Source: Candidatus Sericytochromatia bacterium
Lineage (GTDB): Bacteria; Cyanobacteriota; Sericytochromatia; S15B-MN24; UBA4093
Assembly: GCA_036676985.1 (NCBI GenBank)
Contig: JAKFBU010000001.1
Coordinates: forward strand, 32,001 to 96,000
DNA: 64,000 nucleotides
Reading direction: 5' to 3'
The notes below the pieces were generated by a model. That model saw only the letters and a program-made list of their open reading frames with translations, made no database searches and was not told the origin of the DNA. A program made the translations under genes and the position numbers. This document shows positions 4,242 through 35,356 of the stretch, one piece after another (position 1 is the first letter of the stretch; each line of letters starts with the position of its first letter).

Positions 4242-5414
4242 ATGTCCTTAGCTTCGCCCGCGCCCCACAACCCCGACGACATCACGTTCGAACTGCTGCT
4301 GCTCAACCAGGTGGCTCAGCAGCGGGCCAAGGCGCTGCCCCACCCCCTCGCCGCCACGCTGCGCGCGAGCGCCCTGTGGGAGGAGCCGGTCGTGGAGCGC
4401 CAACGGCGCCCCGTCCCGGTCTGGAAGGCGGCCGTGCTCGCGGGCCTCATCGCGCTGACGCCGATGGCCTGGCTGCCCGTCTACGCGGACACCCAGCTCA
4501 AGGTGGGCATGAACGTCATCGACGCCCGCAGCGGCAAGGCGATCGCGGGCGCGCGCATCCTGAGCGAGAACGGCACGCTCCTGGGGACCACGGGGCCGGA
4601 CGGCAAGATCACCCTGGTGGTGCCGTCGGGGGCGAGCGATCGCTTCGTCATCGAGAAGCCCGGCTATCGTTCGTTCCCGGTGATCCGCACCCAGTTGCGG
4701 GACAACAACCTGATCGCCATGCTGCCCGCGCCCAAGTCGGCGGCGAGCCCGACCGGCGCGCCCGTGACGGCGCAGGCGACCCCGCGACCCGCCACGCCCA
4801 AGCCGACGGCACGCCCTGCGACCCCCAAGCCGCCGGTGCGCCCTGCCACGCCGGCGCCCACGGCCAAGCCAGTCAAGCCCGTCGTCGTGCCGCCCAGGGC
4901 GACGCCCAAGCCCACGCCCCGGCCGACCGAGGCTCCTGTCGTGAAGCCCACCGTCCGGCCCACCATGCGCCCCACCGAGGCTCCGGCGGCCCAGCCGTCG
5001 GCCGAGTTTCCGACGCATGCGGCGACCCCGACCACCATGCGCTACAAGCGCTACAAGGTGCGTCCCGGCGACAACCTCTGGAAGATCTCCAAGCGCGAGT
5101 ACGGGGATCCGATGCGCTGGAAGGTGATCTACGAGGTCAACCGCGACGTCATGAAGCGCTCGGACATGATCCAGCCGGGCATGATCCTCAAGCTGCCGAC
5201 CTCGAGCCGGCAGATGATCAAGCAGGGCTGGGTGTTCGTCAAGAAGGGCGACTCGCTCTACGTCCTCGCCGAGCGCTACCTGGGCAACGGCGAGCGCTGG
5301 CCCGAGCTCTACCGGGCCAACCGCCAGCGCATCCAGAACCCGCGCGTCATCCAGCCGGGACAGCGGCTCTACATCCCCAAGAAGGGCCGCAAGGCGCGCA
5401 CCACGCGCCGCTAG
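4242..5414 (+). CDS. LysM peptidoglycan-binding protein (TM/signal segment, carboxypeptidase-regulatory-like domain, Pro/Thr linker, two LysM domains)
   Basis: YKVRPGDNLWKISKREYGDPMRWKVIYEVN and VKKGDSLYVLAERYLGNGERWPELYRAN...IQPGQRLYIP; PATPKP repeats. Confidence 0.85.
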   Translation: MSLASPAPHNPDDITFELLLLNQVAQQRAKALPHPLAATLRASALWEEPVVERQRRPVPVWKAAVLAGLIALTPMAWLPVYADTQLKVGMNVIDARSGKAIAGARILSENGTLLGTTGPDGKITLVVPSGASDRFVIEKPGYRSFPVIRTQLRDNNLIAMLPAPKSAASPTGAPVTAQATPRPATPKPTARPATPKPPVRPATPAPTAKPVKPVVVPPRATPKPTPRPTEAPVVKPTVRPTMRPTEAPAAQPSAEFPTHAATPTTMRYKRYKVRPGDNLWKISKREYGDPMRWKVIYEVNRDVMKRSDMIQPGMILKLPTSSRQMIKQGWVFVKKGDSLYVLAERYLGNGERWPELYRANRQRIQNPRVIQPGQRLYIPKKGRKARTTRR

Positions 5415-6163
5415 CTCAATTCCGACATCGCGAAGCGCTGCGCCCCCTCCAAGGTCAGGTAGGGGGCGCACTCGTAGCCGGGCAGGCCCGGCGCCACCGT
5501 CTCGGCCCAGCCGCCGCAGAGGACGGCCGGGGCCTCCACGCCGAGGGCTGCTCGGATGCGCGTGACCAGGTGGTGGATGAGGCCCACGTGCCCCTCGACC
5601 ATCCCGATCTGGAGGCAGGTGATGGTGTCGGCGCCCCAGGCGGCCTCGGGGCGCACCATGGGCACCGGCGGCAGCTGGGCGGTGTTGCCCACCAGCGCGT
5701 GAGCCGCGGTACCGAGCCCGGGGGCGATGGCGCCGCCCACCACCCGCCCGTCCGCGTCCACGACCGTGAGCGTCGTGGCCGTGCCGCAGTCGACGGCGAT
5801 GCCCGGGGCGTGGCCGCGCGCGAGCAGGGCGCGGGCGTTGGCGAGCCGATCCGCCCCCATGGAGCCCGGCGGCTCGTAGCGCAGATCGAGCCCGGAGGCC
5901 GGGGCGGTCAAGAGCCGCGGCGCGTGTGCCGCCCAAGCGGCCATGAGGACCTCGGCGGCGGCGGGCACCACCGAGACGACGGCGACGGCGTCAGCCGGCG
6001 GGAGATCGGGCGGATCCGCCTGGATCCGCGAGGTCGAAAAGGCCTCGGTGCGGCACAGCGAGCCGCCGACGAACCACCCGAACCGGGTGTTCGTGTTCCC
6101 GATGTTGACGACCAGCGTCCGGGGGTCCTTGCCATGGGCTGGGAAGTCTGGTATCGTGATCAT
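5411..6163 (-). CDS. coaX: Type III pantothenate kinase
   Basis: IGNTNT, VSVVP, GADRLAN, VDCGTATT, GGAIAPG, LTLEG motifs. Confidence 0.93.
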   Translation of the reverse strand: MITIPDFPAHGKDPRTLVVNIGNTNTRFGWFVGGSLCRTEAFSTSRIQADPPDLPPADAVAVVSVVPAAAEVLMAAWAAHAPRLLTAPASGLDLRYEPPGSMGADRLANARALLARGHAPGIAVDCGTATTLTVVDADGRVVGGAIAPGLGTAAHALVGNTAQLPPVPMVRPEAAWGADTITCLQIGMVEGHVGLIHHLVTRIRAALGVEAPAVLCGGWAETVAPGLPGYECAPYLTLEGAQRFAMSELS

Positions 6164-6227
6164 TCGCCGCTTTCCTGAAACGTTTTCCTGAATTTAAGGA
6201 ACCAATTACTTCCTGGAGGAATTAACC

Positions 6228-6419
6228 GTGCCTAAAGTCTGCGAAGTCTGCTCGAAGGGCCCCTCGACGGGCTTCAACGTCAGCCACTCGAACCGCCACA
6301 CGAAGCGTCGTTGGCTTCCGAACCTCCAGAGCGTTCGTGCGAACCTCAACGGCACCGTCCGCAAGCTGCGGGTTTGCACGTCCTGCCTGAAGGCCGGCAA
6401 GGTCGTCCGCGCCGTCTAG
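6228..6419 (+). CDS. rpmB: 50S ribosomal protein L28 (Zn-ribbon type)
   Basis: CEVCSK...[18 protein letters not shown]...[10 protein letters not shown]; GTG start after GGAGGG. Confidence 0.97.
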
Positions 6420-6440
6420 GCCCGGCGTCCCACTCTACAC

Positions 6441-6475
6441 GGCGAAGGCCGGGCTGGTAAAGCCCGGCCTTCGCC
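6441..6475 (+). terminator. Hairpin after rpmB
   Basis: 15-bp stem GGCGAAGGCCGGGCT / AGCCCGGCCTTCGCC with a 5-nt loop; weak U-tract. Confidence 0.6.
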
Positions 6476-6635
6476 ATTGGCATGGGTACGCGAAATTGCC
6501 TAGCGGCGATCGGGGCAAGGGCGGATGCCCTCCGGGCCCCATTGCGCTAGGCTGGTCGTCCGGGTCGGGGCAGGCCCTCCTCCTCGTGGCTAGGATGCCC
6601 GGGAAGAGGGTATAAACACGCGTGAGGAGCCCATC

Positions 6636-11694: not shown

Positions 11695-11841
11695 CGTGGT
11701 TTCTACTCGCTTCTAGGGTGATGGCCCTGATCTTAGCCCAACATTCTACCACACCGCTGGACGGCCCCCCGCGCGGTTCAACGCCCTCTCGCCCCTTGCC
11801 CCGGTCCGGTGTTATCATCGGAGCTCCGGAAAGGAGCAGCC

Positions 11842-13284
11842 ATGCAGGAACTGGCCCACCACGCGCTGAACCGCGCTCAGGTGCTCGGCGCGGGTTACGC
11901 CGACGTCCGCTTCGTGCGGCGTCACGTCGAGACCATCACCGTCAGGGACGGCCACCTGGCCGGCCTGTCCATCGACGAGAGCGCGGGCTTCGGCGTGCGC
12001 GTCCTCTACGACGGCTCGTGGGGCTTCGCCTCCAGCGCCACCATCAGCCAGGCCGAGGTCGAGCGGGTCACGGAGCTCGCGGTCGCGATCGCCAGGGCGA
12101 GCCGCAAGGTCCAGCGCACGCCCGTGCAGCTCGGCCAGCCCGTGACCACCCGCGGGACCTACGTCACGCCCCTCGTCGAGGACCCCTTCGCCGTGAGCCT
12201 CGAAGAGAAGATCGCGCTGCTCATGGCCGCCGACGCCGAGCTGCGGGCGGTAAAGGGCATCCGGTCTAGCGAGGCCTCCCTCGGCTGCCAGAAGGAGCTC
12301 AAGACCTTCGCCTCCACCGAGGGCGCCTACATCGAGCAGGAGCTGGTCGAGACGGGCTGCGGCATCGTGGCGACGGCCGTGGGCGACCACGACGTCCAGC
12401 GCCGCAGCTACCCCAACTCCTTCGGCCGCCACCAGGCGACGCGCGGCTTCGAGCTGGTGCGCGAGGTGGACCTGGTCGGCAACGCCCGCCGCATCGCCGC
12501 GGAGGCCGTCGCGCTCTTGACGGCCCCCGCGTGCCCCTCGACCGTGACCACCCTCGTGCTCGACCCCACCCAGCTCGCCCTGCAGGTCCACGAGTCCATC
12601 GGGCATGCCATCGAGCTGGACCGGGTGTTCGGCATGGAGGCCTCCTTCGCCGGCACGAGCTTCCTCGCCCCCGACATGCTCGACGGCTTCCGGTACGGCT
12701 CGGAGCTCGTCACCGTCACGGCCGACGCCACGGCCCCCGGCGGGCTCGGCACCTTCGGCTTCGACGACGAGGGCATCCCCGCCCAGGCCTCGCCCATCAT
12801 CGAGCAGGGCGTCTTTAGGGGCTTCTTGAGCTCCCGCGAGACCGCCAGCCGCATCGGGCGCGAGTCCAACGGCACCATGCGCGCCGACGGCTGGCAGCGC
12901 ATGCCCATCATCCGCATGACCAACGTCAACCTCCTGCCCGGCGAGCACAGCTTCGAGCGGCTCATCGGCGAGGTCGACGACGGCGTCTACATGCACACCA
13001 ACAAGAGCTGGAGCATCGACGACAAGCGGCTCAACTTCCAGTTCGGCTGCGAGATCGCCTGGGAGATCAAGGGCGGCAAGCTCGGGCGCATGCTCAAGAA
13101 CCCGACCTACACGGGCCTCACGCCCGAATTCTGGGCCAACTGCGACGCCATCGGCGACAAGAGCCAGTGGCAGATCTGGGGCACGCCCAACTGCGGCAAG
13201 GGCCAGCCCGGACAGACGGCCCACGTCGGCCACGGGGCCGCGCCCGCCCGCTTCCGCAACGTCCGCGTGGGGATCCTGCCATGA
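11842..13284 (+). CDS. tldD: TldD metalloprotease
   Basis: GFGVRV, HESIGHAIELD zinc motif, FDDEG, RMTN, CGKGQP; AAGGAG RBS before the ATG. Confidence 0.93.
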   Translation: MQELAHHALNRAQVLGAGYADVRFVRRHVETITVRDGHLAGLSIDESAGFGVRVLYDGSWGFASSATISQAEVERVTELAVAIARASRKVQRTPVQLGQPVTTRGTYVTPLVEDPFAVSLEEKIALLMAADAELRAVKGIRSSEASLGCQKELKTFASTEGAYIEQELVETGCGIVATAVGDHDVQRRSYPNSFGRHQATRGFELVREVDLVGNARRIAAEAVALLTAPACPSTVTTLVLDPTQLALQVHESIGHAIELDRVFGMEASFAGTSFLAPDMLDGFRYGSELVTVTADATAPGGLGTFGFDDEGIPAQASPIIEQGVFRGFLSSRETASRIGRESNGTMRADGWQRMPIIRMTNVNLLPGEHSFERLIGEVDDGVYMHTNKSWSIDDKRLNFQFGCEIAWEIKGGKLGRMLKNPTYTGLTPEFWANCDAIGDKSQWQIWGTPNCGKGQPGQTAHVGHGAAPARFRNVRVGILP

Positions 13285-14799: not shown

Positions 14800-15897
14800 T
14801 TAGTTGCCCGTGTTGGCGTCCGCGAACCACACGTCCTCGGACACCTTGCTTTGCCCGTTCTGCGTGAAGCTCGACCGCATCAGGTCCTCGCCGCGGTCGT
14901 TCTTCTCGGTGTGCATGACCACCGAGATCTCAGTGATGCCGAGGTCCCGCAGGCTCTTGAGCTCGCCCTGGCCGAGGCGCGCATCGCCGTTGTCGACCCA
15001 CACCTTGAGGCCGTCGAGCTCGGCGCCCGTCAGCTTGCCGTCGCCGTCCTTGTCGAAGCGCTTGAGCTTCTCGTAGCCGTTGGAGTACTGACCGCCCTGG
15101 TCGCCGAAGAGCCGCGTGCCGTCGATCTCGCCGTCGGTCTGGAGGGCCTTGGTGGCACCCCCATCCGAGTCGTCGACGAGCATGCCGTCCCCGTCGCCGT
15201 TCATCCACTCGATGTTGTCCTTGGCGCCGTCCCCGTCGATGTCGAACTGCACCGTCTTGCCGATCTCGCCGTCCACGCGGTCCTTCGCGGTGGACACGCC
15301 CGTGGTGCCGAGCTTGCCGTCGCCGTTGAGGTCCAGCATGACGGGCGATCGCGTCTTCATGGCGTCCTGGTAGCACTTGCGCGCGCCCTCGATGTCGCCC
15401 GCCATCAGCTTGTCGTACGCCTCGTTGAGGTGCATGCCGCCCATGGGGCCCGCCGCGTTGCGCGGATTCGTGTTGCGCCCCTTGCCCTTGAAGGGTCCGA
15501 GGGCCTGCTCGAGGGCGTCCATCTTGTAGTCCGGGATGGCACGCTGCTTGTCCGAGCCCTTGCTGAAGCCACCCTGGCCGTAGATGCCGCTTTTCTTCCA
15601 GTCCCCTGCCGGAGCCTGGGGCTTGCCGCCGCCCTGGGTGTTGAGGAAGTTGTAGTCAGCGGGCTCGCCGCGCGCGGCCGCCAGGAGCTTCTTGTTGATC
15701 TCGTCGCGGATCCCCATGCCGGCGTCGCCCAGCCCGAGGTTCGCCTCCCCGCCGCCGCCCAGGGTCGCCCGGTCCGTCGGGGGCGCGGGCGGGGCGAGCT
15801 GAATGTCCTCCGCCTTGAAGGCGTCGGGCGGCGGGGCCGCCGGGCGCACCACGGGCTTGGTGACGATGTCGATGTTCTGGGACTGGAAGACGTCCAT
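14800..15897 (-). CDS. Hypothetical Ca2+-binding protein with a C-terminal 'SPxxLDLNGDG' domain and DxDGDG/EF-hand loops
   Basis: SPVMLDLNGDG, FDIDGDG, ELFG-like RLFGD, FDKDGDGKLTGAE, LKVWVD, LGITEIS, DVWF; GGAGG RBS; no signal peptide. Confidence 0.75.
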   Translation of the reverse strand: MDVFQSQNIDIVTKPVVRPAAPPPDAFKAEDIQLAPPAPPTDRATLGGGGEANLGLGDAGMGIRDEINKKLLAAARGEPADYNFLNTQGGGKPQAPAGDWKKSGIYGQGGFSKGSDKQRAIPDYKMDALEQALGPFKGKGRNTNPRNAAGPMGGMHLNEAYDKLMAGDIEGARKCYQDAMKTRSPVMLDLNGDGKLGTTGVSTAKDRVDGEIGKTVQFDIDGDGAKDNIEWMNGDGDGMLVDDSDGGATKALQTDGEIDGTRLFGDQGGQYSNGYEKLKRFDKDGDGKLTGAELDGLKVWVDNGDARLGQGELKSLRDLGITEISVVMHTEKNDRGEDLMRSSFTQNGQSKVSEDVWFADANTGN

Positions 15898-16016
15898 GCA
15901 GCTGTACCTCCGGAATCGGGGACCGTCATGTCTCTATCCCCCCCGACCCGGCGGAACCTACGTCAAATCTTGGTTCCAGACGTTAGATCGGCATTAAGAG
16001 TCCGTTGCGCTCGCGT

Positions 16017-17141
16017 TCAGTCGCCCTGGGCGGCCTCCGGATGCCAGGAGAGCCAGCGGACGACGTCCGACTGGCTCAAGACGCCCACGACCTGGCCCTC
16101 GTCCAGCACCGGCAGCCTGCCCACGCCCAGCTGGTTGAAGCGCGTGACGGCATCGGCCACCGACGCATGGGCATCCAGGGCCTCCGCCTCCTTGAGGGGC
16201 GTCATGACCTCCCCCACCCGGCGATGCGGCCACTCGGCAGCGGGCACTTGCTTGATGTCGTTGGCCTGCAGCACGCCGTCCAGGTGGCCGTCCACCACCG
16301 GGTACCCGCCGTAGGGATAGCGCAGCAGGTAGTCGTCGACCACCTCCTGGAGGGTCATGTCGGGCGAGAGGACCTTGGGGTCGCGGCTCATGAGGTCCGA
16401 GACCCCGACCCGCGAGAGGGCCGTCTGCACCAGCAGCTCCCCGTAGGTGCTGCCCGCCGCCTGGAAGAGCAGGTACCCGATCGCCCCCACCCACACGGCC
16501 CCGAACAGATCTCCCCGCATCAGGCGCCACACGGCCCAGACCATCATGAGGCCGGCCACGAGCTGCCCCCCGCGCGAGGCCACCCGGGTGGCCCGGCGCA
16601 GGCTCCCCGTCGCCTGCCAGGCGGCGGCCCGCAGGATGCGGCCACCGTCCAGGGGAAAGCCCGGCAGGAGGTTGAAGAGGCCTAGCGCCAGGTTGACGAT
16701 CGTCAGCCAAGCCGCCACCGCCGAGAGGGGCTCGAGGCCGAGCCGGGTGCTCGTGATCCACGCCAGGAGGGCGAAGAGCCCCGAGAGCAGGAAGCTCATG
16801 AGCGGGCCTGCGGCCGCCACCAGGAACTCGACCTTGGGGCTGGGCAGCTCCTGGGTGGTCTCGGAGATGCCCCCGAACACGAAGAGCACGATCCGCCGCA
16901 CCCTCAGGCCGAAATGCTTGCTGACCAGCGAGTGGGAGAGCTCGTGGGCGACCAGGCTCGCGAAGAACAGGAAGGTCGTGGCGAGGCCCATGGCCAGGTA
17001 GGACCCGCGCGGCAGGCCCGGGTAGGTCTGCGGGAACACGCCCACTGTCAGGGACCACAGGATGAGCGCGAAGATGAACAGCCACGACGGGTTGATCTCG
17101 ATGGGGATCCCGAACAGGGTGGCGATCCGAAAGCCGCGCAT
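16017..17141 (-). CDS. Site-2 (M50) intramembrane protease with a CBS pair
   Basis: HELSH, FGG, AAGP, FNLLPGFPLDGGR, two CBS domains; start at MRGFRI after GGAGG. Confidence 0.93.
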   Translation of the reverse strand: MRGFRIATLFGIPIEINPSWLFIFALILWSLTVGVFPQTYPGLPRGSYLAMGLATTFLFFASLVAHELSHSLVSKHFGLRVRRIVLFVFGGISETTQELPSPKVEFLVAAAGPLMSFLLSGLFALLAWITSTRLGLEPLSAVAAWLTIVNLALGLFNLLPGFPLDGGRILRAAAWQATGSLRRATRVASRGGQLVAGLMMVWAVWRLMRGDLFGAVWVGAIGYLLFQAAGSTYGELLVQTALSRVGVSDLMSRDPKVLSPDMTLQEVVDDYLLRYPYGGYPVVDGHLDGVLQANDIKQVPAAEWPHRRVGEVMTPLKEAEALDAHASVADAVTRFNQLGVGRLPVLDEGQVVGVLSQSDVVRWLSWHPEAAQGD

Positions 17142-25544: not shown

Positions 25545-26306
25545 ATGGATCGCATCGCCGCCCAGAGCCTGATGTCCAAGCTGCTGAAGCCGATCTTCCG
25601 GCCGGATCAGCAGTACGAGGTCACGGCCGCCGCGCGTCAGGCCATCGACACCAACCGTGACGGCAAGGTCACCAACGAAGAATTGCTCGAGGGCCTCGTC
25701 CGCGACCAGGTGTCCCTGGACCCCCGGGTCCGCGAGATCCTCGCCAACCGCTCCCGGATGGAGATCGATCGCGCCATCGCTCCGCGCGACAAGAGCGCCT
25801 CGTTCGGCACCGTCGAGCAGTGCATGGAGTTCGCCATGCGCTACTTCCGGGAGTCCCGCGCCAAGGCGGGCAAGTCCGGCAGCTCCTTCGACGCCGATTT
25901 TGGCGCCCAGCACAACCTGGCCGACGACCTGCGCCTCATGGCCTCGGACCCATCCCTCAAGGGGGGCTACAACGGCTACCTCAACGACGGCACGATCCCC
26001 CCGCGCGCGGGTGACGTGCTCGTCGCCGAGAGCCTGAACGGCGAAGAGTTCCACATCGCGCTTGTGACCGAGGTCGTGCCCAAGGGCAGCCAGTGGGAGG
26101 TCACGGTCTACGAGGCGAACGTCCCCTTCAACACCAACGCCTCCCGTCCCGAGGACCACCTGCACAAGTTGCCCCTGACCAACCACAACGGGACCTGGTC
26201 CATGCCGGCCCTGCCCACGAGCCGCCAGGGCTACAGCAACGACATGTTCGTCGTGGGCTGGATCCACCCGGAAGGCAACAAGGCCCTTCCCGGCGCCGCC
26301 GACTAG
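25545..26306 (+). CDS. EF-hand plus CHAP-like cysteine amidase
   Basis: DTNRDGKVTNEE EF-hand; EQCMEFAMRY (Cys), PRAGDVLV, FHIALV (His), VYEAN (Glu), GWIH. Confidence 0.72.
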   Translation: MDRIAAQSLMSKLLKPIFRPDQQYEVTAAARQAIDTNRDGKVTNEELLEGLVRDQVSLDPRVREILANRSRMEIDRAIAPRDKSASFGTVEQCMEFAMRYFRESRAKAGKSGSSFDADFGAQHNLADDLRLMASDPSLKGGYNGYLNDGTIPPRAGDVLVAESLNGEEFHIALVTEVVPKGSQWEVTVYEANVPFNTNASRPEDHLHKLPLTNHNGTWSMPALPTSRQGYSNDMFVVGWIHPEGNKALPGAAD

Positions 26307-27484: not shown

Positions 27485-29059
27485 CTAGCGCTGGATGTGG
27501 ATGGTGACGTCCTTGTCCCGGACCGTGAGCCTGCCCTGGGTGGCCATCACGTTGACCTTCTCGCCGATGATCTTGAGCTCGCGCTTGAAGGCGTAGGTGC
27601 CGGCCTTGAGGGCCTGCTCCCGGCCGTCCAGCTCGACCTTCACGCTCTTGGGCTCCAGGAAGAACATCACGTTCGAGAAGGGCCACGACAGATCGGAGCT
27701 CTTCATGGCCACCGGCGTCTGGCGCAGGACCACGTTGACGCCGCCCTTGCGGTAGTTCAGGACGTCCATCCGGTAGCCGAAGAGGGTCTGCCGGTCGATC
27801 TCGATGGGCGGAGTGGGCGAGCTGACGCGCATCCACTCTCCCCCCCTCTTGGGGTCGAGCTCATGGCCGCCGCTGTCCTTGACCTTCGTGAGCCCGGTGA
27901 TCGTGACCTTGGTCCCGGGGCTGTTCATGAAGTCCTTGTAGCTCGACGGGAAGCGGGTCCAGGTGTCCTTGGCCTCCGCAAAGAGCTGATCGTAGCCGTA
28001 GAGCTGCTTGGCGGTCGCGAAGAGGCGCGCGCCGTCCTTGTCGCTGAACTTGGCCACCCGGGCGATCGCCTCGTCCATGGTGTTGCCGCTCGTGACCATG
28101 CCCTTCCAGTTGGCGTTGCCGAGGCGATCCATCAGGAGGCCGAGCGCGGCGCCGGTCGCAGAGAGACGGGACCGGCGGGTCTCCTCGCTGTCGAGCGGCT
28201 GCGAGAGGCGGCCGATGATCCCGCGGGTGGCTTCGTCCTCGCTCTCCCACTTCATGCCGGGCAGGGTCTTGTGCTTGGACGAGGCGCCGTAGGCCGAGTA
28301 CTCGGTCTCGGTGTAGCGCATCGCGCCTTCGTGGGTCTCGGCCAGGCTCTCGTAACGGGCGAACTTGCGCTCGAGCTTCTGGTGGCGGGCATGGCGGACC
28401 GCGGCGAAGTACCGGGCGTGATCGTCGAGCTTCTGGGCGTTCTTTTCCTGGAGGGCGATCGAGAGGATCTTGTTCTCGAGGTTCGCCAGGGCCGTGTTCT
28501 CCACGTTGCCGGTCGGATAGTCCCTGCTCGCGCCGTCGGCGATCCGCTGGAACTCGGCGAAGTCCGCGAAGTTCTGCTGGGTGTAGATCGCGAACAGGGG
28601 CGCGAAGAACTCGCGCGGCTGGACGTCGTTGTCGTACGCCAGGTACTGGTACGGCATGAAGGCGATCTTGGCCCCTGCGAACTGGAGGTTCAGATCGCGC
28701 GCCTTCTCGAACTCGGGCACGGTGCCCCAGCGGACGTAGACGCGACCCTTGAGGCTCGCCGGGACGTTGGAGACGGCCTCGAAGCCCTTGGGAGGCCTGG
28801 GATGGTTGAACAGGAAGCCGCCCCGGCCCGGCTGGTAAATGGCGATGGGCTGGGAGCCCAGATCGAACCCGGGCCAGATCGCACCCTTGGTCTCCAGGGA
28901 GACGGCCCGCGCCTCGGCCAGCGCCGCGAAGATCTTCTGATCCACCGGCGTCGGGGAGGCCGCGATCGCCGGGGAGCTGAACATCGGAGCCAGTAACACC
29001 AGCGTACCGGCGACCATGGCAAACCGTTTCAAGATCGGAGGCTCCTTTCTCCTTGGCAC
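27485..29059 (-). CDS. Secreted hypothetical protein, possibly a degenerate gluzincin-like peptidase
   Basis: Signal peptide ending AIA; IWPGF, FLFNHP, HEGAMRYTE, SATGAALGLLMDRL; no HExxH; start uncertain. Confidence 0.6.
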   Translation of the reverse strand: MPRRKEPPILKRFAMVAGTLVLLAPMFSSPAIAASPTPVDQKIFAALAEARAVSLETKGAIWPGFDLGSQPIAIYQPGRGGFLFNHPRPPKGFEAVSNVPASLKGRVYVRWGTVPEFEKARDLNLQFAGAKIAFMPYQYLAYDNDVQPREFFAPLFAIYTQQNFADFAEFQRIADGASRDYPTGNVENTALANLENKILSIALQEKNAQKLDDHARYFAAVRHARHQKLERKFARYESLAETHEGAMRYTETEYSAYGASSKHKTLPGMKWESEDEATRGIIGRLSQPLDSEETRRSRLSATGAALGLLMDRLGNANWKGMVTSGNTMDEAIARVAKFSDKDGARLFATAKQLYGYDQLFAEAKDTWTRFPSSYKDFMNSPGTKVTITGLTKVKDSGGHELDPKRGGEWMRVSSPTPPIEIDRQTLFGYRMDVLNYRKGGVNVVLRQTPVAMKSSDLSWPFSNVMFFLEPKSVKVELDGREQALKAGTYAFKRELKIIGEKVNVMATQGRLTVRDKDVTIHIQR

Positions 29060-29402: not shown

Positions 29403-31460
29403 ATGAGCAACACATGGCGTAAGACACTCAACGCCGTGTTGAGCGCCTTCATGATTGTCGGGATGAGCGCGCTGCCCTCGGTGACGAGCAACGCGGCCTA
29501 TGCCCAGTCGGAAGGGGACACTCGCACGGTTCAGCAAGAAGTTGGTACACGCACGGACAACGAGTCCACGACCAGCGCCGCCTACGATCCCACGTCCGGG
29601 GTCACGACCATCCGGCGCAAGCAAGACACCGTTCGCCTCTACAACGAGCGCACGGAGTCGTATCGTCAAACTGGTAATCGCACGGATACTCGCTACCGGC
29701 AGGATCCGGTCTACGAAACCCGCTACCGCCAGGAGCAGCGTCAACGGCAGGAGACCCAGCAGGTCGCTCGCACGGGCTACCGCCAGGAGACCCAGCAGGA
29801 GACCCGCTACCGCCCGGTCTACGAGACCAAGTACCGTCAGGTCGCTCGCACGGGCTACCGCACGGAGACCCAGTATCGCACCGAGTACGAGGCCGTCTAC
29901 ACGACGCAGGCCTACCAGGACCAGGAAGCCTACACGGCATACGGCTGGCGCTGGGAGACCCGGTATACCTCGCAGTGGCAGTGGATCACCCGCTACCGCA
30001 CCGAGACCGTCAAACGCTGGTACACTTCCCCCGGTTACTGGGCCGGCACCTATGAGTACGGCTACTTCGGCTACCCCGGCTGCTACTACACCAGCCGCTA
30101 TCGCACCTACTGGGTGAGCGGCTACACCTACTCGCTCTGGGAGAACGTCTCGGTCCCCTACCAGTCCTGTGAGCTGGTGTCCGTTCCCTATCAGGAGCGG
30201 GTGCAGTACGCGTACACCGCCTACCGGCCGGTGACCCGCTACCGCAGCGTGTTCTCCTACTGGCGCCCCTACACGGTCGCCACCACCGTCTCGGTCCCCT
30301 ACACCTACTACGTGACCGAGTCCTACCAGGAACAGGCCTACGACCTGGTCGGCTACCGTGACAACTACGGCTACACCTGGGTCAACGAGTCCTACACCGA
30401 GTGGGGCTACTTCGGCTATCCCGGCTGCTACTACACCAGCCGTACGAGCAACCGTAAGGTCTGGAAGTACGCCTTCCTCGGCCGTGATCCCATCTACCAG
30501 CCTCGCCAGGAGGCCTACCAGGTGCCCGTGACGGTCACGGTCGCCTACACCTACTACGAGCCCGTGACGGTGACCGTCACCTACAACGTCGACGTCGCCT
30601 ACGAGGTCCAGACCGGTACGCGCCAGGTGGCCTACCAGGTCGTGGTCCCCGTCTACAACTGGGTGCCCAACGGCGACTGGCAGTCCAAGGAGGAGATCAC
30701 CCGGACGTCCTTCGTCACGGTGGGTCGCGTCGGCTCGGCGGTGATGGCGGCGGAAGCTGCCGGACCCACCAAGGCCAAGTCCTCCACCTTCATGTCCGAC
30801 AGCGGCACGGGCAACACCAAGACCGAGCTGTCCGGCTCGAAGAAGCGCCTGGTCTTCAAGGCTGACGAGGCCGTCGCTTCGACGGCCAAGGTGGCCGAGG
30901 TCAGCGCCGGCTCGATCCGGGACAACAACGGGAACAACGGCAACGGCAATGGTCGGAACGTGACGCCCGCCCCGGTGATCGTCTTCGTGCCGACCCCGCC
31001 CCCCGTGGCCATCGTCCGACCCACCCCGGCTCCGACTCCGCGGCCGACGGCCACCCCGGCGCCTACCCCGACTCCCACCCCCGCGGTGGATCTGTCGACG
31101 GTGGACGACGAGAACCAGACGTTCACGATCACCAACTGGACCGGCACCTTCGAGAAGGGCAACCAGCGGGTGGTCATCTCGAACTCTGGCGGCAAGCCGC
31201 GTGCGGCGCTGTACAAGAAGAACGGCAATCAGTGGACGCTGATTGCTCAGGACACGGCTCCCCCGTCGGGTACGCTGCGTTCCAGCAACTCGGCATACAA
31301 CGACAACCCTCAGACCAACGGCAGCGGTCGCAGCTTCTACACCAACGGGGACATCGTCCTCAAGCGCAAGAAGAACGGCGACCTCAAGCTGAGCGGGACC
31401 TACACGGGTACCGACGTCGATGGAGGGTCGTTCAGCTTCACCGACATGAAGAAGCAGTAG
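29403..31460 (+). CDS. Secreted Tyr/Thr/Arg/Val-rich repeat protein (YTV-like, predicted branched beta-ribbon) with a PT linker and a C-terminal beta domain
   Basis: GGAGG RBS, signal peptide ending AYA, repeats PVYET, TRYR, VSVPY, QVARTGYR x2, GYFGYPGCYYTSR x2. Confidence 0.85.
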   Translation: MSNTWRKTLNAVLSAFMIVGMSALPSVTSNAAYAQSEGDTRTVQQEVGTRTDNESTTSAAYDPTSGVTTIRRKQDTVRLYNERTESYRQTGNRTDTRYRQDPVYETRYRQEQRQRQETQQVARTGYRQETQQETRYRPVYETKYRQVARTGYRTETQYRTEYEAVYTTQAYQDQEAYTAYGWRWETRYTSQWQWITRYRTETVKRWYTSPGYWAGTYEYGYFGYPGCYYTSRYRTYWVSGYTYSLWENVSVPYQSCELVSVPYQERVQYAYTAYRPVTRYRSVFSYWRPYTVATTVSVPYTYYVTESYQEQAYDLVGYRDNYGYTWVNESYTEWGYFGYPGCYYTSRTSNRKVWKYAFLGRDPIYQPRQEAYQVPVTVTVAYTYYEPVTVTVTYNVDVAYEVQTGTRQVAYQVVVPVYNWVPNGDWQSKEEITRTSFVTVGRVGSAVMAAEAAGPTKAKSSTFMSDSGTGNTKTELSGSKKRLVFKADEAVASTAKVAEVSAGSIRDNNGNNGNGNGRNVTPAPVIVFVPTPPPVAIVRPTPAPTPRPTATPAPTPTPTPAVDLSTVDDENQTFTITNWTGTFEKGNQRVVISNSGGKPRAALYKKNGNQWTLIAQDTAPPSGTLRSSNSAYNDNPQTNGSGRSFYTNGDIVLKRKKNGDLKLSGTYTGTDVDGGSFSFTDMKKQ
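30060..30443 (+). repeat. 39-bp near-identical intragenic direct repeat encoding GYFGYPGCYYTSR (30060-30098 and 30405-30443)
   Basis: GGCTACTTCGGCTA(C/T)CCCGGCTGCTACTACACCAGCCG(C/T); only synonymous differences. Confidence 0.95.
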
Positions 31461-31467
31461 ATCCATC

Positions 31468-31500
31468 AGGCCCCGGGGCAGATGCCCCGGGGCCTCTTTC
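31468..31500 (+). terminator. Terminator between the repeat protein and the pilin genes
   Basis: AGGCCCCGGGGCA-GA-TGCCCCGGGGCCT followed by CTTTC. Confidence 0.7.
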
Positions 31501-31570
31501 GTTCGCGAAACCGGACGATTAGCGAGCGCCCGTGCAGGGAAGAAAGACTCAGAGGCTTTCGGATCGGAGC

Positions 31571-32554
31571 ATGCACGTGCGTCATCAATCAGCCACAAGG
31601 GATCAGCGGCAACGGCAGGCGGGCTTCTCGCTCACCGAGCTCTTGATTGCGTCCACGGCATTCGTCATCATCATGTCGGCGGCCATGAGCATGATGGTGC
31701 AGTGGCAGCGCGTGAACGGCCGCAGCGAGGGGGACATCACCGCCATCAACCAGGCCGCCAAGGCCATCGGCCAGATCGCCGACGACGTCCGAATGGCGAC
31801 CTACATCTACCACTACGCGACCATCTCGATCGAGCAGAACGGCGTCAACGAGTTCCGCTCCTCGGCCAACCCCGAGACGTTCCGGAACATCGGCATCGTC
31901 ACCCAGGGCGCTCAGGCGGACGGCGTTGCCAACACCTTCTTCACCAACCGGGGCGTCCCCACCTCCATGATGGGCGTGACGAGCAACGGCACCTCCTCGA
32001 TCCTGGCCCTCATCACCGACCAGCCCTACGGTCTCAGCCGCCCCCGCTACATCCTCTACTGGATGGGACCGTCGACGGGCCAGCTGCGCGGCCGCGAGAC
32101 CGGGGACGACCTGACCGTCCATCCGCTCTATCGCCTGGAGGCCTCGCCGTCCAGCAACGTCGCGGTCGCAAACCCCACCTCTTGGTACACCTTCGGCAAC
32201 GCGATCAGCACCACGGCCGCGACCTCGGGCATCTACATCACCCTCCGGACGGGCTCCACCTCCACCATCCAGGACTTCTGGAGCAACGGGGTGCGCCGCA
32301 ACTCGGTCACCGTCAACTACCGCCTCAACAAGATGGCCGACATCGTCATGGGCCGGGACATCAACGGTCCGTTCACCATCCGCAACGAGCACCCGTTCAG
32401 CAATGCCTCGCTCCTGAGCCCCTACTCGGCGACCGTCTCCATCTCGACCTCCCGCGTCGGCAACTCCGGCAGCGTGCGGGGCAACAACGTGGACGTCTAC
32501 ACCTTGACCACCAATGCCTATGCCCGCAACATCCCGCTTCCCCAGCAGAACTAA
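31571..32554 (+). CDS. Type IV minor pilin/pseudopilin (PilW/GspJ-like)
   Basis: Class III signal RQAG|FSLTELLIAS with Glu+5; IADDVRMA helix; C-terminal YARN. Confidence 0.85.
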   Translation: MHVRHQSATRDQRQRQAGFSLTELLIASTAFVIIMSAAMSMMVQWQRVNGRSEGDITAINQAAKAIGQIADDVRMATYIYHYATISIEQNGVNEFRSSANPETFRNIGIVTQGAQADGVANTFFTNRGVPTSMMGVTSNGTSSILALITDQPYGLSRPRYILYWMGPSTGQLRGRETGDDLTVHPLYRLEASPSSNVAVANPTSWYTFGNAISTTAATSGIYITLRTGSTSTIQDFWSNGVRRNSVTVNYRLNKMADIVMGRDINGPFTIRNEHPFSNASLLSPYSATVSISTSRVGNSGSVRGNNVDVYTLTTNAYARNIPLPQQN

Positions 32555-32564
32555 GGAGGGCATC

Positions 32565-33386
32565 GTGCGCATGAGGCAGTCCGACGCGGGGTTCACCCTC
32601 ATCGAGGTCGCGGTCGCCGCGACCCTCATCGCGACCGTGCTCTTTGGCATGGGATCGGTCATGATGAACTACACCAACGCCCGCAACAAGGTCAGCGGCC
32701 TGGCCGTCGCCCAGAACATCGTCCAGGCCGAGATCGACGACGTGCTCATGCACACGCAGATCGAGAACAGCCTGGTGAGCGACACCCGTGGTCGCAGCCG
32801 CCCGGTCTACCTCGAGAACGGCAGCGCGAGCGTCCTGGTCTCCAACTACTGGTACCTCAACTTCCCGCGTTTCCCGACCAACCCGGTCATCGACCACAAC
32901 ACCCAGGGCCAGACCTGGGGCATCAGCGTGGACAGCCTGGAGAGCCGCTTCGGCTCCACGCCCGGCAACCTGTATAACGCGGGCGGCACCCGCATCGCCG
33001 GTGCGAGCCCCGAAGACGAGCAGATCGCCTACATCGCGCGCCTGCAACTGTACGGAGCCCTCGGCCCGGTGAACAACGTAGAGACCTACATCAACGGGGC
33101 GACGTCGTCGGCCAACCCGAACGGCCAGTTCGTCGACACCATCACACGGCCCGCCTACCTGATCGCTGACACCTGCATCAACCAGGGCGGGGCCGCCATC
33201 GACAACTCGGACTCCGACGCCAACTTCAACAACTACCGGATCAAGATCCTGGTGGTGCGCGTGTACAACAAGAAGTACTACTTCGACGACAACGGCAACC
33301 GGGCCTCTTTCATCAAGCCCACGGGCGGCACCAAGCCCGAGATCACCCACAGCTACGCCGTGCTCAACGGTCGGATTCGGCTCTAA
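32565..33386 (+). CDS. Type IV minor pilin/pseudopilin (PilV/GspI-like)
   Basis: DAG|FTLIEVAVAA with Glu+5; AGGAGG RBS. Confidence 0.85.
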   Translation: MRMRQSDAGFTLIEVAVAATLIATVLFGMGSVMMNYTNARNKVSGLAVAQNIVQAEIDDVLMHTQIENSLVSDTRGRSRPVYLENGSASVLVSNYWYLNFPRFPTNPVIDHNTQGQTWGISVDSLESRFGSTPGNLYNAGGTRIAGASPEDEQIAYIARLQLYGALGPVNNVETYINGATSSANPNGQFVDTITRPAYLIADTCINQGGAAIDNSDSDANFNNYRIKILVVRVYNKKYYFDDNGNRASFIKPTGGTKPEITHSYAVLNGRIRL

Positions 33387-33397
33387 GGACGGTGCAC

Positions 33398-35356
33398 ATG
33401 GTTCGGCAGCGGAAAGACCGGAAGAACGAACAGGGCTTCACCCTCGCCTTCACGATCATGCTCACGGTCGTGCTCAGCCTGGCGGCCGTGGCCATCATGG
33501 CCAAGGTCTTCGTCAGCACGCGGCAGTCCGGCTTCACCAAGGAGCGGCAGAACACCATGGACGCCGCGGTGATCGGCCTGAACATGGCGCTGGACGAGAT
33601 CTCTCCGGGCCTGGACCGCATGCGCAACGTCGTCTGGACCTCCGCGCCGTCGGACGTGAACGCCGGCGGCAACATCTATCCGCTCGCCACCTACACCCAG
33701 ACCCAGATGACGGCGGCCGGGGCGTCGACCAGCACCCCCGTGCGCCAGCTCAGCATGGTGGCCAACATCCGCAACTGGGAGGCCTTCGCCAACTGGTCCG
33801 GCACCACGACGGCCGACTGGAACAAGGGCTGGGCCTACGTCGCAAGCGCCTCGACGGTCCAGTACTTCGACGCCGCACCGGGACAGACGGGCCGCGCCAC
33901 GGTCAGCATCGGCAACGAGAACACGACGGGCGCCTACTGGTACAAGCAGATCGAGCCCAAGCCCCCAGTCCTCACGAACGGGGGCCCGGACGTGCCGGTC
34001 CTGCCGAACGGCAGCAAGATCTGGCCCAACGCCCGCGGCGGCGGGATCTACGGCAACGAGTACCCCTACGGCGTCTTCTGCCAGCCGGTCTTGCGCAAGG
34101 TCTTCCAGGTCCGCCAGAACCCCATCGTGCGCGTGGCGGTCTACGTCCGCCTTTCCCTGCAGGATTACTACGGCCCCGAGATCGCCGGCGGCCAGGTGAC
34201 CTACCGCAACGTGGGACTGGACGGACGAACCATCCCCACCGGTACGCCCGGGATGGATGCGGCCTCGGCCTCGTTCGACGGTCGCAACTTCCTCGAGACC
34301 AACGCCGTCACATTCTCGATCTTCGCTGTCAGCGAGGGGTCCGGCGACTCGAAGGGCGTTCGTATCCACCAGGCACTGAACATCAACCTGGGCGGCGCGG
34401 AGTACATTTCCGGGGCCTCGCCGCGGCTATCGAACGGGCAGAACATGAATGCCAACGGCCTCGAGAACGTCAACCGCCTGTTCCTGGCGGGCGGCGGCGC
34501 GACGCCGTATGCGCATCGCTTGATCCCCTACTTCGCCCCGACGCTCGATACGCCGAGCGGCAACAACCAGCTGACGGCCTACTCGTCGATCACGGGCCAG
34601 GTCTATCCGGCCTCGTCGGATCTGAGCTTCAACTTCGCGACACGCCCGGCCACCGAAAGCGTCGTCTTCCTGTATGAGCACATCAAGCTCGTCGGCGCCG
34701 ACAACGCCAACGTCGTCTTCCTGATCGAGCAGATTCCGCCGGGCGTCAACGGGACGAACCGCTACTGGCGCCGGCGGCTGCTGTTCGACGGCCCGCGAGG
34801 CTTCAGCAGCCCCCTCTGGGAACAGTTCGTGGGTCAGGGCTACAACGCGAACCAAGCCATGATGTTCAATCGGGCCTCCTACTCCATCGACCCATGGACC
34901 AGCACGGCGGGCTTCCCGTCCATGCTCTACTGGGCCAACAAGGTCGCGAGCAACCTGGCCGGCAACCTGGTCCCCATCGCCCCGGGCGAGGAGCACTTCT
35001 TCGCCCCCAGCAACCTGGACCGGACGGATGCCCAGCGCTATCCCTTCACGGCCCGGCTGGACCGGTTCGGAACGTTCACCGTCGGTACGCAGTCGGCGAC
35101 GGACTTCGGAGTGCCGGCCGCCGACGCGCGAGGCGACGTCGTCACCTGGCCGAACAACCCCCTGCTCGACTACCGAGGCACCCGCCTGGCCGCGAGCATG
35201 CCATGGCAAGGCCCGACGGTCCCGGTCTCGACGGCCGTGGCGACGGTCTCCTACGTGGCGACGACCTGGCCCAAGAATGCCTGGTCGACCATCTGGACAG
35301 GCCAGGGCGGAGGCATCGGCCTGCCCTTCACGGCGGCGACCTGGAGCGTGTTCTAG
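33398..35356 (+). CDS. Large PilX/GspK-like minor pilin
   Basis: EQG|FTLAFTIMLTVVL class III signal lacking Glu+5; DAAVIGLNMAL helix; Asn/Thr/Gly/aromatic-rich body. Confidence 0.75.
   Translation: MVRQRKDRKNEQGFTLAFTIMLTVVLSLAAVAIMAKVFVSTRQSGFTKERQNTMDAAVIGLNMALDEISPGLDRMRNVVWTSAPSDVNAGGNIYPLATYTQTQMTAAGASTSTPVRQLSMVANIRNWEAFANWSGTTTADWNKGWAYVASASTVQYFDAAPGQTGRATVSIGNENTTGAYWYKQIEPKPPVLTNGGPDVPVLPNGSKIWPNARGGGIYGNEYPYGVFCQPVLRKVFQVRQNPIVRVAVYVRLSLQDYYGPEIAGGQVTYRNVGLDGRTIPTGTPGMDAASASFDGRNFLETNAVTFSIFAVSEGSGDSKGVRIHQALNINLGGAEYISGASPRLSNGQNMNANGLENVNRLFLAGGGATPYAHRLIPYFAPTLDTPSGNNQLTAYSSITGQVYPASSDLSFNFATRPATESVVFLYEHIKLVGADNANVVFLIEQIPPGVNGTNRYWRRRLLFDGPRGFSSPLWEQFVGQGYNANQAMMFNRASYSIDPWTSTAGFPSMLYWANKVASNLAGNLVPIAPGEEHFFAPSNLDRTDAQRYPFTARLDRFGTFTVGTQSATDFGVPAADARGDVVTWPNNPLLDYRGTRLAASMPWQGPTVPVSTAVATVSYVATTWPKNAWSTIWTGQGGGIGLPFTAATWSVF

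Follow-up and report, generated by a model that had tools for sequence, protein, structure and literature searches.

Nested long beta-hairpins predicted in a secreted protein encoded beside minor-pilin-like genes in a Sericytochromatia genome

What fold would a secreted protein adopt if its repeats read as a mirror image and not as a tandem array? The question is raised by a gene in a 64,000-nucleotide stretch of a Candidatus Sericytochromatia bacterium genome (assembly GCA_036676985.1, contig JAKFBU010000001.1, positions 32,001 to 96,000), referred to here as the window. An earlier reading of the letters alone, the sequence-only reading, had proposed that positions 29661-30656 of the window encode a Y-shaped, two-armed beta-ribbon with identical tips. 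This repeat stretch is real: it corresponds in frame to residues 87-418 (332 residues) of a 685-aa protein, and a single open reading frame (ORF) spans all of it (Table 1). When translated from the ATG at 29403, the product is identical (100% over 100% of its length) to the database protein P0002.

Our answer is that residues 75-434 probably form nested, very long two-stranded antiparallel beta-hairpins. They would belong to a Sec-exported fibrous protein acting as a base-anchored surface spacer or adhesin together with a type IV minor-pilin set. The nested topology is supported by several independent sequence tests and by structure models of modest confidence. The period-2 alternation phase, the matching strand lengths of homologues and the strand map predicted by AlphaFold2 are well beyond chance.

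Composition and alternation of the repeat region

The repeat region is extreme in composition, with 60 Tyr, 45 Thr, 36 Val, 34 Arg and 29 Gln among its 332 residues (18% Tyr and 10% Arg). The 13-residue tip motif GYFGYPGCYYTSR is found exactly twice, at residues 220 and 335, which bears out the identical tips of the sequence-only reading, and the DNA of the two copies agrees at 41 of 44 nucleotides. The six motif pairs of the long arm stand where that reading had placed them, but the sums of first and last residue are 163-165 and not the 164-166 that it gave. In the short arm (58 residues, local numbering), the YPG turn falls at residues 28-30. P210, G211, G240 and Y241, all in the long-arm tip region, are invariant across the homologue alignment. 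Cysteine is scarce, with three residues in the 332-residue region and none in the remaining mature segments, and the tip cysteines are not conserved among homologues. In the target and in P0003, but not in P0004 and P0005, the two tips are more alike within the protein than between orthologues; in some lineages, then, gene conversion may have acted, or selection may keep the tips identical.

Outgoing and returning strands differ in composition. Arg plus Lys number 25 on the outgoing strands and 8 on the returning ones, whereas Val, Ile and Leu together rise from 9 to 30 and Pro from 2 to 9. The strand asymmetry described earlier thus holds for basic residues, Val and Pro, but not for the supposed enrichment of Tyr on the returning strands, as Tyr, Trp and Phe are nearly equal (24 outgoing versus 26 returning).

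Along the outgoing strand (residues 75-208), 20 of the 24 aromatic residues occupy even positions and 39 of the 43 charged residues odd ones. Taken together, 59 of 67 residues are in phase, whereas 20,000 shuffles average 36.7 and never exceed 49. The same phase continues past residue 139, where the fork had been placed, and the outgoing strand therefore passes straight through it. Of the proposed Y shape, the nested fork stands; with one outgoing phase across the fork, however, a trunk with a side branch fits the sequence as well as a Y. Even positions of the stem return carry Val and Tyr, and a phase change in the long-arm return near residues 271-275 is consistent with the pairing sum dropping by one, from 451 to 450. 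On such a ribbon, Tyr, Trp, Thr and Val would line one face, and Arg, Glu and polar residues the other. In the homologue L015, the phase is kept across 210 residues (aromatics 30/38, charged 47/55).

Structure prediction

AlphaFold2 was run on the full-length protein with a 6-sequence alignment (run 1; mean predicted local distance difference test score, pLDDT, 48.7; predicted template-modelling score, pTM, 0.23) and on residues 36-440 with a 7-sequence alignment (run 2; mean pLDDT 63.2, pTM 0.23). Both runs return the strands 140-208, 242-311, 313-335, 345-367 and 369-401, together with a distal sub-hairpin (212-223 and 228-238). The outgoing strands of the stem are 75-99 and 106-138 in run 1 versus 76-97 and 105-138 in run 2. 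Single-residue breaks at 139, 312 and 368 appear in both runs, at the very junctions drawn by the sequence-only reading, for which a structure prediction had been named as a check. The stem measures about 64 pairs and is thus longer than the roughly 50 pairs it had been given. In run 2, the long-arm block has pLDDT values of 71-89, and its returning strand (242-311) of 71-88. The only helices predicted in run 1 are the leader and one of four residues at 576-579.

Strands in the hairpin part reach 60-70 residues with no regular turns in either run. This bears on a beta-solenoid or compact repeat fold, built of short strands and regular turns and related to planctomycete YTV proteins, which would draw on the recurring short Tyr/Thr/Val motifs (PVYET, VPY) and on direct DNA repeats within the gene, such as those at 78-nt spacing in the outgoing strand (family D4). 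The single alternation phase over 134 residues does not suit such a fold. Residues 140-208, the 69-residue outgoing strand of the long arm, contain no Pro and two Gly, and this near-absence argues against a fold with many turns. Tandem Repeats Finder retrieved no coil-length array from the hairpin part, only three two-copy rows with periods of 9, 15 and 36 nt. Such a fold also gives no reason for the matched lengths of outgoing and returning strands reported below, and the YTV profile searches given in the last section are against it too. A beta-solenoid or beta-helix was rejected on these grounds, and we regard this explanation as hardly credible.

Strand lengths and repeats in homologues

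The family is very rare, with six proteins, including the query, in 5.8 billion clusters. At E ≤ 0.001, 27 matches were retrieved from 1.84 billion representatives, most of them covering the C-terminal half only. Other searches yielded two matches among shorter proteins, one locus in a genome collection of 185,579 species and two loci in JGI metagenomes.

Trunk lengths were measured from anchor to anchor between conserved anchors, with side arms removed, and are therefore independent of alignment. Outgoing and returning lengths are 122 and 125 residues in the target, P0003, P0004 and P0005, 98 and 99 in P0006, and 198 and 200 in L015, so that the two trunk strands match within 1-3 residues in all six full-length proteins over a two-fold length range. 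In P0006, the segments change in chain order by -10, -14, -15, +7, +12 and -11 residues, and these changes nest in pairs (-10/-11, -14/-15 and +7/+12). A 10-residue deletion at 93-102 is mirrored by an 11-residue deletion in the stem return, and a 14-residue deletion at 160-173 by one of 15 residues in the long-arm return. Pairwise alignment was abandoned for placing these deletions, as their positions vary with gap penalties. The sequence-only reading had staked itself on insertions and deletions in the outgoing strand being matched in the returning one, and both the nested pairs of P0006 and the six trunks agree with it.

The number of side-arm units also varies, being one in the target, three in L015 and two in L016. 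YPGC tips number four in L015 (927 aa), one of them distal and the others on three 55-residue side arms. On the outgoing strand lie 3.5 copies of a 26-aa repeat, and on the returning strand 2.9 copies of an 81-aa repeat, which is made up of a 55-aa arm plus 26 aa of trunk. By simple arithmetic, the two repeat arrays would face each other if the chain were folded about the distal tip. L016, like L015 from a metagenome, is a close relative of L015 with two 81-residue units versus three, and its 5' end is lost at a contig end.

A mirror order is also found in the distant homologue P0010, which has no long arm and carries, at the position of the short arm, a 232-residue arm whose two halves have 104 residues each. 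The outward half contains six 12-residue repeats and the returning half six 13-residue repeats. Irregular units follow the second outward repeat and precede the second-last returning one, giving a 2-x-4 / 4-x-2 order. The order proposed earlier, in which the chain leaves along the stem, runs up and down the long arm and then the short arm, and comes back along the stem, is thus supported by the AlphaFold2 strand breaks, the paired insertions and deletions, the trunk lengths and the mirror repeats of P0010.

These data also bear on another view of the region, as an adhesive matrix protein of low complexity that is largely disordered or amyloid-like and whose modelled strands would be an artefact of the strong alternation. 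The extreme composition, the tiny family, the lack of matches to known folds and the share of residues with pLDDT below 50 (382/685 in run 1 and 107/405 in run 2) would all suit such a protein. Disorder nevertheless leaves unexplained the equal outgoing and returning lengths across a two-fold range, the nested paired insertions and deletions, the mirror-ordered repeats and a phase that does not slip over 134-210 residues, and we consider it improbable.

Two further observations concern parts of the family and the region. The conserved N-terminal head also precedes unlike middle parts in P0016, P0021 and P0023, the middle of P0016 being a tandem repeat of about 32 residues around PYPNPDNYPGLP; since it is joined to such varied parts, the head looks like a reusable base module. 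At window positions 30039-30409, a single contig of sequencing run X5 connects the two tip regions, omitting 369 nt. The joint has 21 other letters in between and a short side of only 24 nt; we do not trust it, as another organism or a repeat is possible. Contigs from runs X5, X7, X8 and X10 are fragmented, diverged pieces and contained no clean insertion or deletion variants.

Proposed architecture

We propose that the outgoing strand, about 134 residues long, would start at the base and end at an aromatic tip far out. On its way back along this strand, after about two thirds of the distance, the chain would turn off into a side hairpin of 57 residues, which bears the same tip a second time, and would then complete the trunk. 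With this out-and-back path both chain ends would meet at the base, where the N-terminal head, the linear motif, the Pro/Thr linker and the small beta domain would lie. Counting 3.3 Å for each residue, one would expect a trunk of about 40-50 nm and a side arm of about 9 nm. That the protein serves as a surface fibre or adhesin tied to a type IV filament is inferred from the position of the gene upstream of minor-pilin-like genes in six loci; paralogues sharing its C-terminal motif, encoded 3-20 kb from a complete Tad locus, speak for such a role as well. The base would be anchored at the surface, the protein would act as a spacer or adhesin alongside the adjacent minor-pilin set, and the aromatic tips and aromatic face might be its sticky parts.

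Several observations weigh against this interpretation. The AlphaFold2 confidence is modest, both runs having few aligned sequences and the same low pTM, and pLDDT at the stem base is 39-59. Strands were assigned to partners by their length and their order along the chain, and not by model coordinates or contact maps. Co-variation in four homologues gives no signal particular to the proposed register, with a ratio of 1.16 at pairing sums 450/451 versus 0.96-1.23 at 20 other registers. Counts of aromatic-aromatic pairs along anti-diagonals reach at best 11 of 83, compared with shuffle maxima averaging 9.5 and topping at 13, and sums 450/451 are outside the top eight; this statistic therefore cannot prove the mirror pattern from a single sequence. 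In P0006, the two halves of the side arm are unequal (35 and 40 residues), and the basal trunk of P0010 is mismatched (42 versus 26 residues). The functional link is drawn from gene neighbourhood only, a terminator-like hairpin (31468-31495) stands between the gene and the pilin genes, and no RNA run is among the sequencing runs listed as containing near-identical DNA. Finally, a ribbon of just two strands that exposes a long Tyr/Val face would hardly be stable on its own, and the picture of a free-standing monomer may therefore be wrong.

This last point leads to the main rival, in which the hairpins are real but exist only within a homo-oligomer: those of several chains would align laterally, closing into a long beta-barrel tube or stacking as a fibre of several sheet layers. 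The principle is known from the stems of pore toxins, from gas-vesicle protein A and from the cyanobacterial tubular pilus. The working object would then be a fibre or tube rather than one branched ribbon. In such an assembly the continuous Tyr/Trp/Thr/Val face would be buried, as it needs to be, and the terminator-like hairpin, a strong one, would fit a separately and highly expressed structural subunit. The sole Protein Data Bank (PDB) chains listed for the hairpin part are pore-state toxin protomers, all of them weak matches (none at E ≤ 0.001), and the CT pilin MrpC is described in excerpts of PMC12397347 as forming a tube with two long hairpins per subunit. However, no sequence or fold relation to pore toxins, gas-vesicle protein A or the CT pilin was found, the side arms would protrude from the assembly, and no dedicated assembly genes were recognised beside the hairpin gene. 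A complex prediction with three copies of the long arm (140-311) scored 0.00, which speaks neither for nor against self-association. On balance, we consider an obligate oligomer rather unlikely.

A bolder form of the nested-hairpin interpretation is possible, and we put it forward tentatively, with more doubt than confidence. The protein would be a free-standing branched beta-ribbon "tree" of a new fibrous class, with a trunk of about 30 to 70 nm and one to three side arms set by matched repeat expansion, and it would serve as a long-reach adhesin on a type IV filament, with the identical aromatic tips as contact pads. To our knowledge, strands of 130-210 residues without loss of phase, and branching like that of an RNA three-way junction, are far outside solved proteins. 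If the fold is real, the two-stranded ribbon can be an evolvable, modular building principle in which trunk length and arm number vary by paired repeat gain. It would offer a template for the design of stiff nanoscale rods whose tips can be addressed, and the minor-pilin loci of a little-studied, non-photosynthetic lineage of soil and groundwater would gain a component not recognised before.

Gene layout and genomic context

The layout of the gene and of its downstream neighbours is given in Table 1. Its GC content at third codon positions is 0.87, comparable with that of adjacent genes, and the large overlapping ORFs in other frames and on the opposite strand are those that a GC content of 64-72% usually yields. 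The N-terminal segment, with the features listed in Table 1, is read as a putative Sec signal peptide; it is conserved among homologues, and AlphaFold2 places a helix at 4-19.

Table 1. Features of the hairpin gene and the genes downstream of it (positions in the window)
Feature	Residues	Position	Strand	Remarks
Whole gene		29403-31460	+	685 aa plus stop; one ORF spans the entire repeat stretch
Putative Sec-type signal peptide	1-34	29403-29504	+	Basic N-end, hydrophobic core, A-Y-A preceding Q35; read from sequence
N-terminal head	35-74	29505-29624	+	QSEGDTRTVQQ...; conserved in homologue alignment; short AlphaFold2 strands, low pLDDT
Outgoing strand, stem and long arm	75-208	29625-30026	+	Single alternation phase
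Long-arm tip region	209-241	30027-30125	+	Bracketed by PG and SG; contains tip copy 1
Tip motif copy 1	220-232	30060-30098	+	Inside long-arm tip region
Returning strand of long arm	242-311	30126-30335	+	Single strand in AlphaFold2
Short side arm	312-368	30336-30506	+	Halves of 28 and 28 residues; contains tip copy 2
Tip motif copy 2	335-347	30405-30443	+	Inside short side arm
Returning strand of stem	369-434	30507-30704	+	Includes conserved YQVVVPVYNWVPNGDW; AlphaFold2 strands 369-401 and 409-434
Conserved linear motif	~456-493	30768-30881	+	SSTFMSDSGTGNTK..SGSKKRLVFKAD..AS; within modelled coil 435-574
C-terminal beta domain	575-685	31125-31457	+	9 short AlphaFold2 strands; block pLDDT 46-84, 8/11 blocks >60
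Terminator-like hairpin		31468-31495	+	8 nt past stop; 12-bp stem, 11 G-C pairs, weak T tail; consensus scan only
Prepilin-type gene 1		31532-32554	+	340 aa; Pfam N_methyl
Prepilin-type gene 2		32514-33386	+	290 aa; Pfam N_methyl
Prepilin-type gene 3		33392-35356	+	654 aa; GFTLAF, without Glu5; N-terminus read from sequence

Beyond the hairpins, the modelled coil 435-574 has a pLDDT of about 25 and ends in a Pro/Thr-rich linker. The linear motif within it has invariant columns at T462, S465, D466, G470, G478, K481, R482, F485, K486, A487, D488 and S493 of the homologue alignment, and it is also found in paralogues of the same genome and in genomes of the same family. The C-terminal beta domain is possibly lipocalin-like, judging from its model.

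The downstream genes gave weak NCBIfam matches to HpsC, GspI and HpsA, all below cut-offs, and the trio resembles the cyanobacterial minor-pilin set of extracellular polysaccharide (EPS) type described in excerpts of PMC13759059. The hairpin gene is found just upstream of pseudopilin genes in six of six loci (the window, L007, L011, L014, L015 and L016), three of which reach only the first of the three minor-pilin-like genes. Gene order is kept in L007, from the same genus, and in L011 and L014, from another genus. In these last two, the pseudopilin is 30% identical (E 6e-42), and the alignment of the hairpin protein is colinear (E 1e-11).

The C-terminal motif, the linker and the small domain recur in paralogues with other N-terminal parts. 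Contig C39 of the same genome (G000; loci L017, at 5254-6489, 11728-13185 and 14950-16479, all on the minus strand, and L018) encodes three such paralogues with the motif, the linker and a small beta domain, alternating with unannotated secreted proteins of 418-734 aa. At a distance of 3-20 kb from them is a complete Tad/Flp pilus locus with TadE, RcpC, a secretin, TadG-like and CpaE-like proteins, T2SSE and two T2SSF. A larger paralogue is encoded on contig C7 (L005, 1333-3459, minus strand; open frame of 985 aa, of which at least 708 aa lie in the locus). It has Thr/Glu/Val/Pro-rich, strand-like stretches around globular-looking inserts, followed by a weaker copy of the motif, and may be a stalk-plus-head version of the same design. 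The genome as a whole has 13 matches to the T2SSE ATPase over the cut-off and six to the secretin.

Upstream in the window, 25545-26306 (plus strand) encodes a secreted-looking protein with a CHAP domain that passes the Pfam cut-off and two weak EF-hand matches that fall short of theirs. A divergent 524-aa protein with a signal-peptide-like N-end and no family match is encoded at 27485-29059 (minus strand). L007 has a 535-aa ORF on the same strand and at the same position beside the orthologue.

Host lineage and occurrence

A photosynthetic cyanobacterial host was considered and rejected, since the photosynthetic reaction centre family Photo_RC (PF00124) was detected in none of 41 genomes of the class, including that of the host, which is 100% complete. 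The control search in Synechococcus was positive. DNA nearly identical to this locus is present in soil and groundwater metagenomes from several studies.

Comparison with known folds and systems

The fibrous design appears unmatched by any described family. Pfam-A gave no family for the target at E ≤ 10 and NCBIfam none at E ≤ 0.01, and the sole match in a profile search of PDB sequences at E ≤ 1 was ApcG (E 0.72). Foldseek against the PDB returned no match at E ≤ 0.001 with either model. The top rows for the full model are lipocalins aligned with the C-terminal domain, and they are weak (8hta: E 0.057, probability 0.97, template-modelling (TM) score on the target 0.35, 133 columns). ESM Atlas gave nothing usable for residues 36-440 and one unnamed cluster for residues 436-685, at 0.75 and below the level of a lead. 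Against predicted viral structures (BFVD), A0A6J5L639 (E 1.6e-8) and A0A6J7WSJ6 (E 1.6e-4) were the only matches below E 0.001. Both are uncultured-phage "PA14 domain" proteins (TM 0.06-0.08, rmsd 71-78 Å) that may contain long ribbons of the same kind. Literature searches, supplementary files apart, brought up no account of a protein of this type.

With the hairpin model as query, Foldseek ranked pore-state protomers of aerolysin, alpha-hemolysin, anthrax protective antigen and lysenin highest, with TM values of 0.05-0.08, rmsd of 15-65 Å (mostly 50-65 Å) and E above 0.001. Such weak rows say only that both objects contain long hairpins. The stems of beta-pore-forming toxins are likewise long, amphipathic two-stranded hairpins, but they are much shorter than those of the target and occur only inside oligomeric barrels, whereas the target has no toxin domains. 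Elongated beta surface stalks without a conventional hydrophobic core are also known from the G5-E repeats of SasG/Aap and from the central sheet of OspA. These are tandem three-stranded modules running in one direction, whereas the target would send two strands of more than 100 residues out and back, with a branch. The target has no Pfam match to the G5 domain.

YTV-domain proteins, which we take to be Pfam PF07639, share with the target a secreted or cell-envelope location and the short Tyr/Thr/Val motifs noted above. The resemblance suggested by the sequence-only reading found no backing in Pfam, as neither the target (E ≤ 10) nor any of the nine homologues and paralogues scanned (E ≤ 1) matched the YTV profile. 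According to excerpts of PMC8567305, YTV proteins are cysteine-rich and confined to Planctomycetales; the mature target has only three cysteines, and its lineage has a cyanobacteria-style minor-pilin set. Membership of the YTV family was rejected on the missing match and the low cysteine content.

Like the CT pilin MrpC, as far as it is described in PMC12397347, the target would be a Sec-exported protein made mainly of long beta-hairpins and forming an extracellular fibre. It is several times larger, however, and its hairpins would be nested and not side by side. Membership of the CT pilins (MrpC having two hairpins plus a helix-turn-helix) was rejected, as no PDB sequence or fold match was found and almost no helices are predicted.

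A parallel in genomic setting is that of the tip adhesins PilY1/PilC, which excerpts of PMC13759059 describe as large, Sec-exported non-pilin proteins; they are encoded together with those minor pilins that prime the pilus and display the adhesin. The same source proposes that cyanobacteria generally lack PilY1 and that a PilX solenoid acts as the cap. Neither Pfam nor NCBIfam matched the C-terminal beta-propeller of PilY1/PilC in the target, and its predicted fold is entirely unlike theirs. It is a non-pilin protein with a signal-peptide-like N-end, encoded upstream of three prepilin-type genes in an arrangement that recurs in five further loci.

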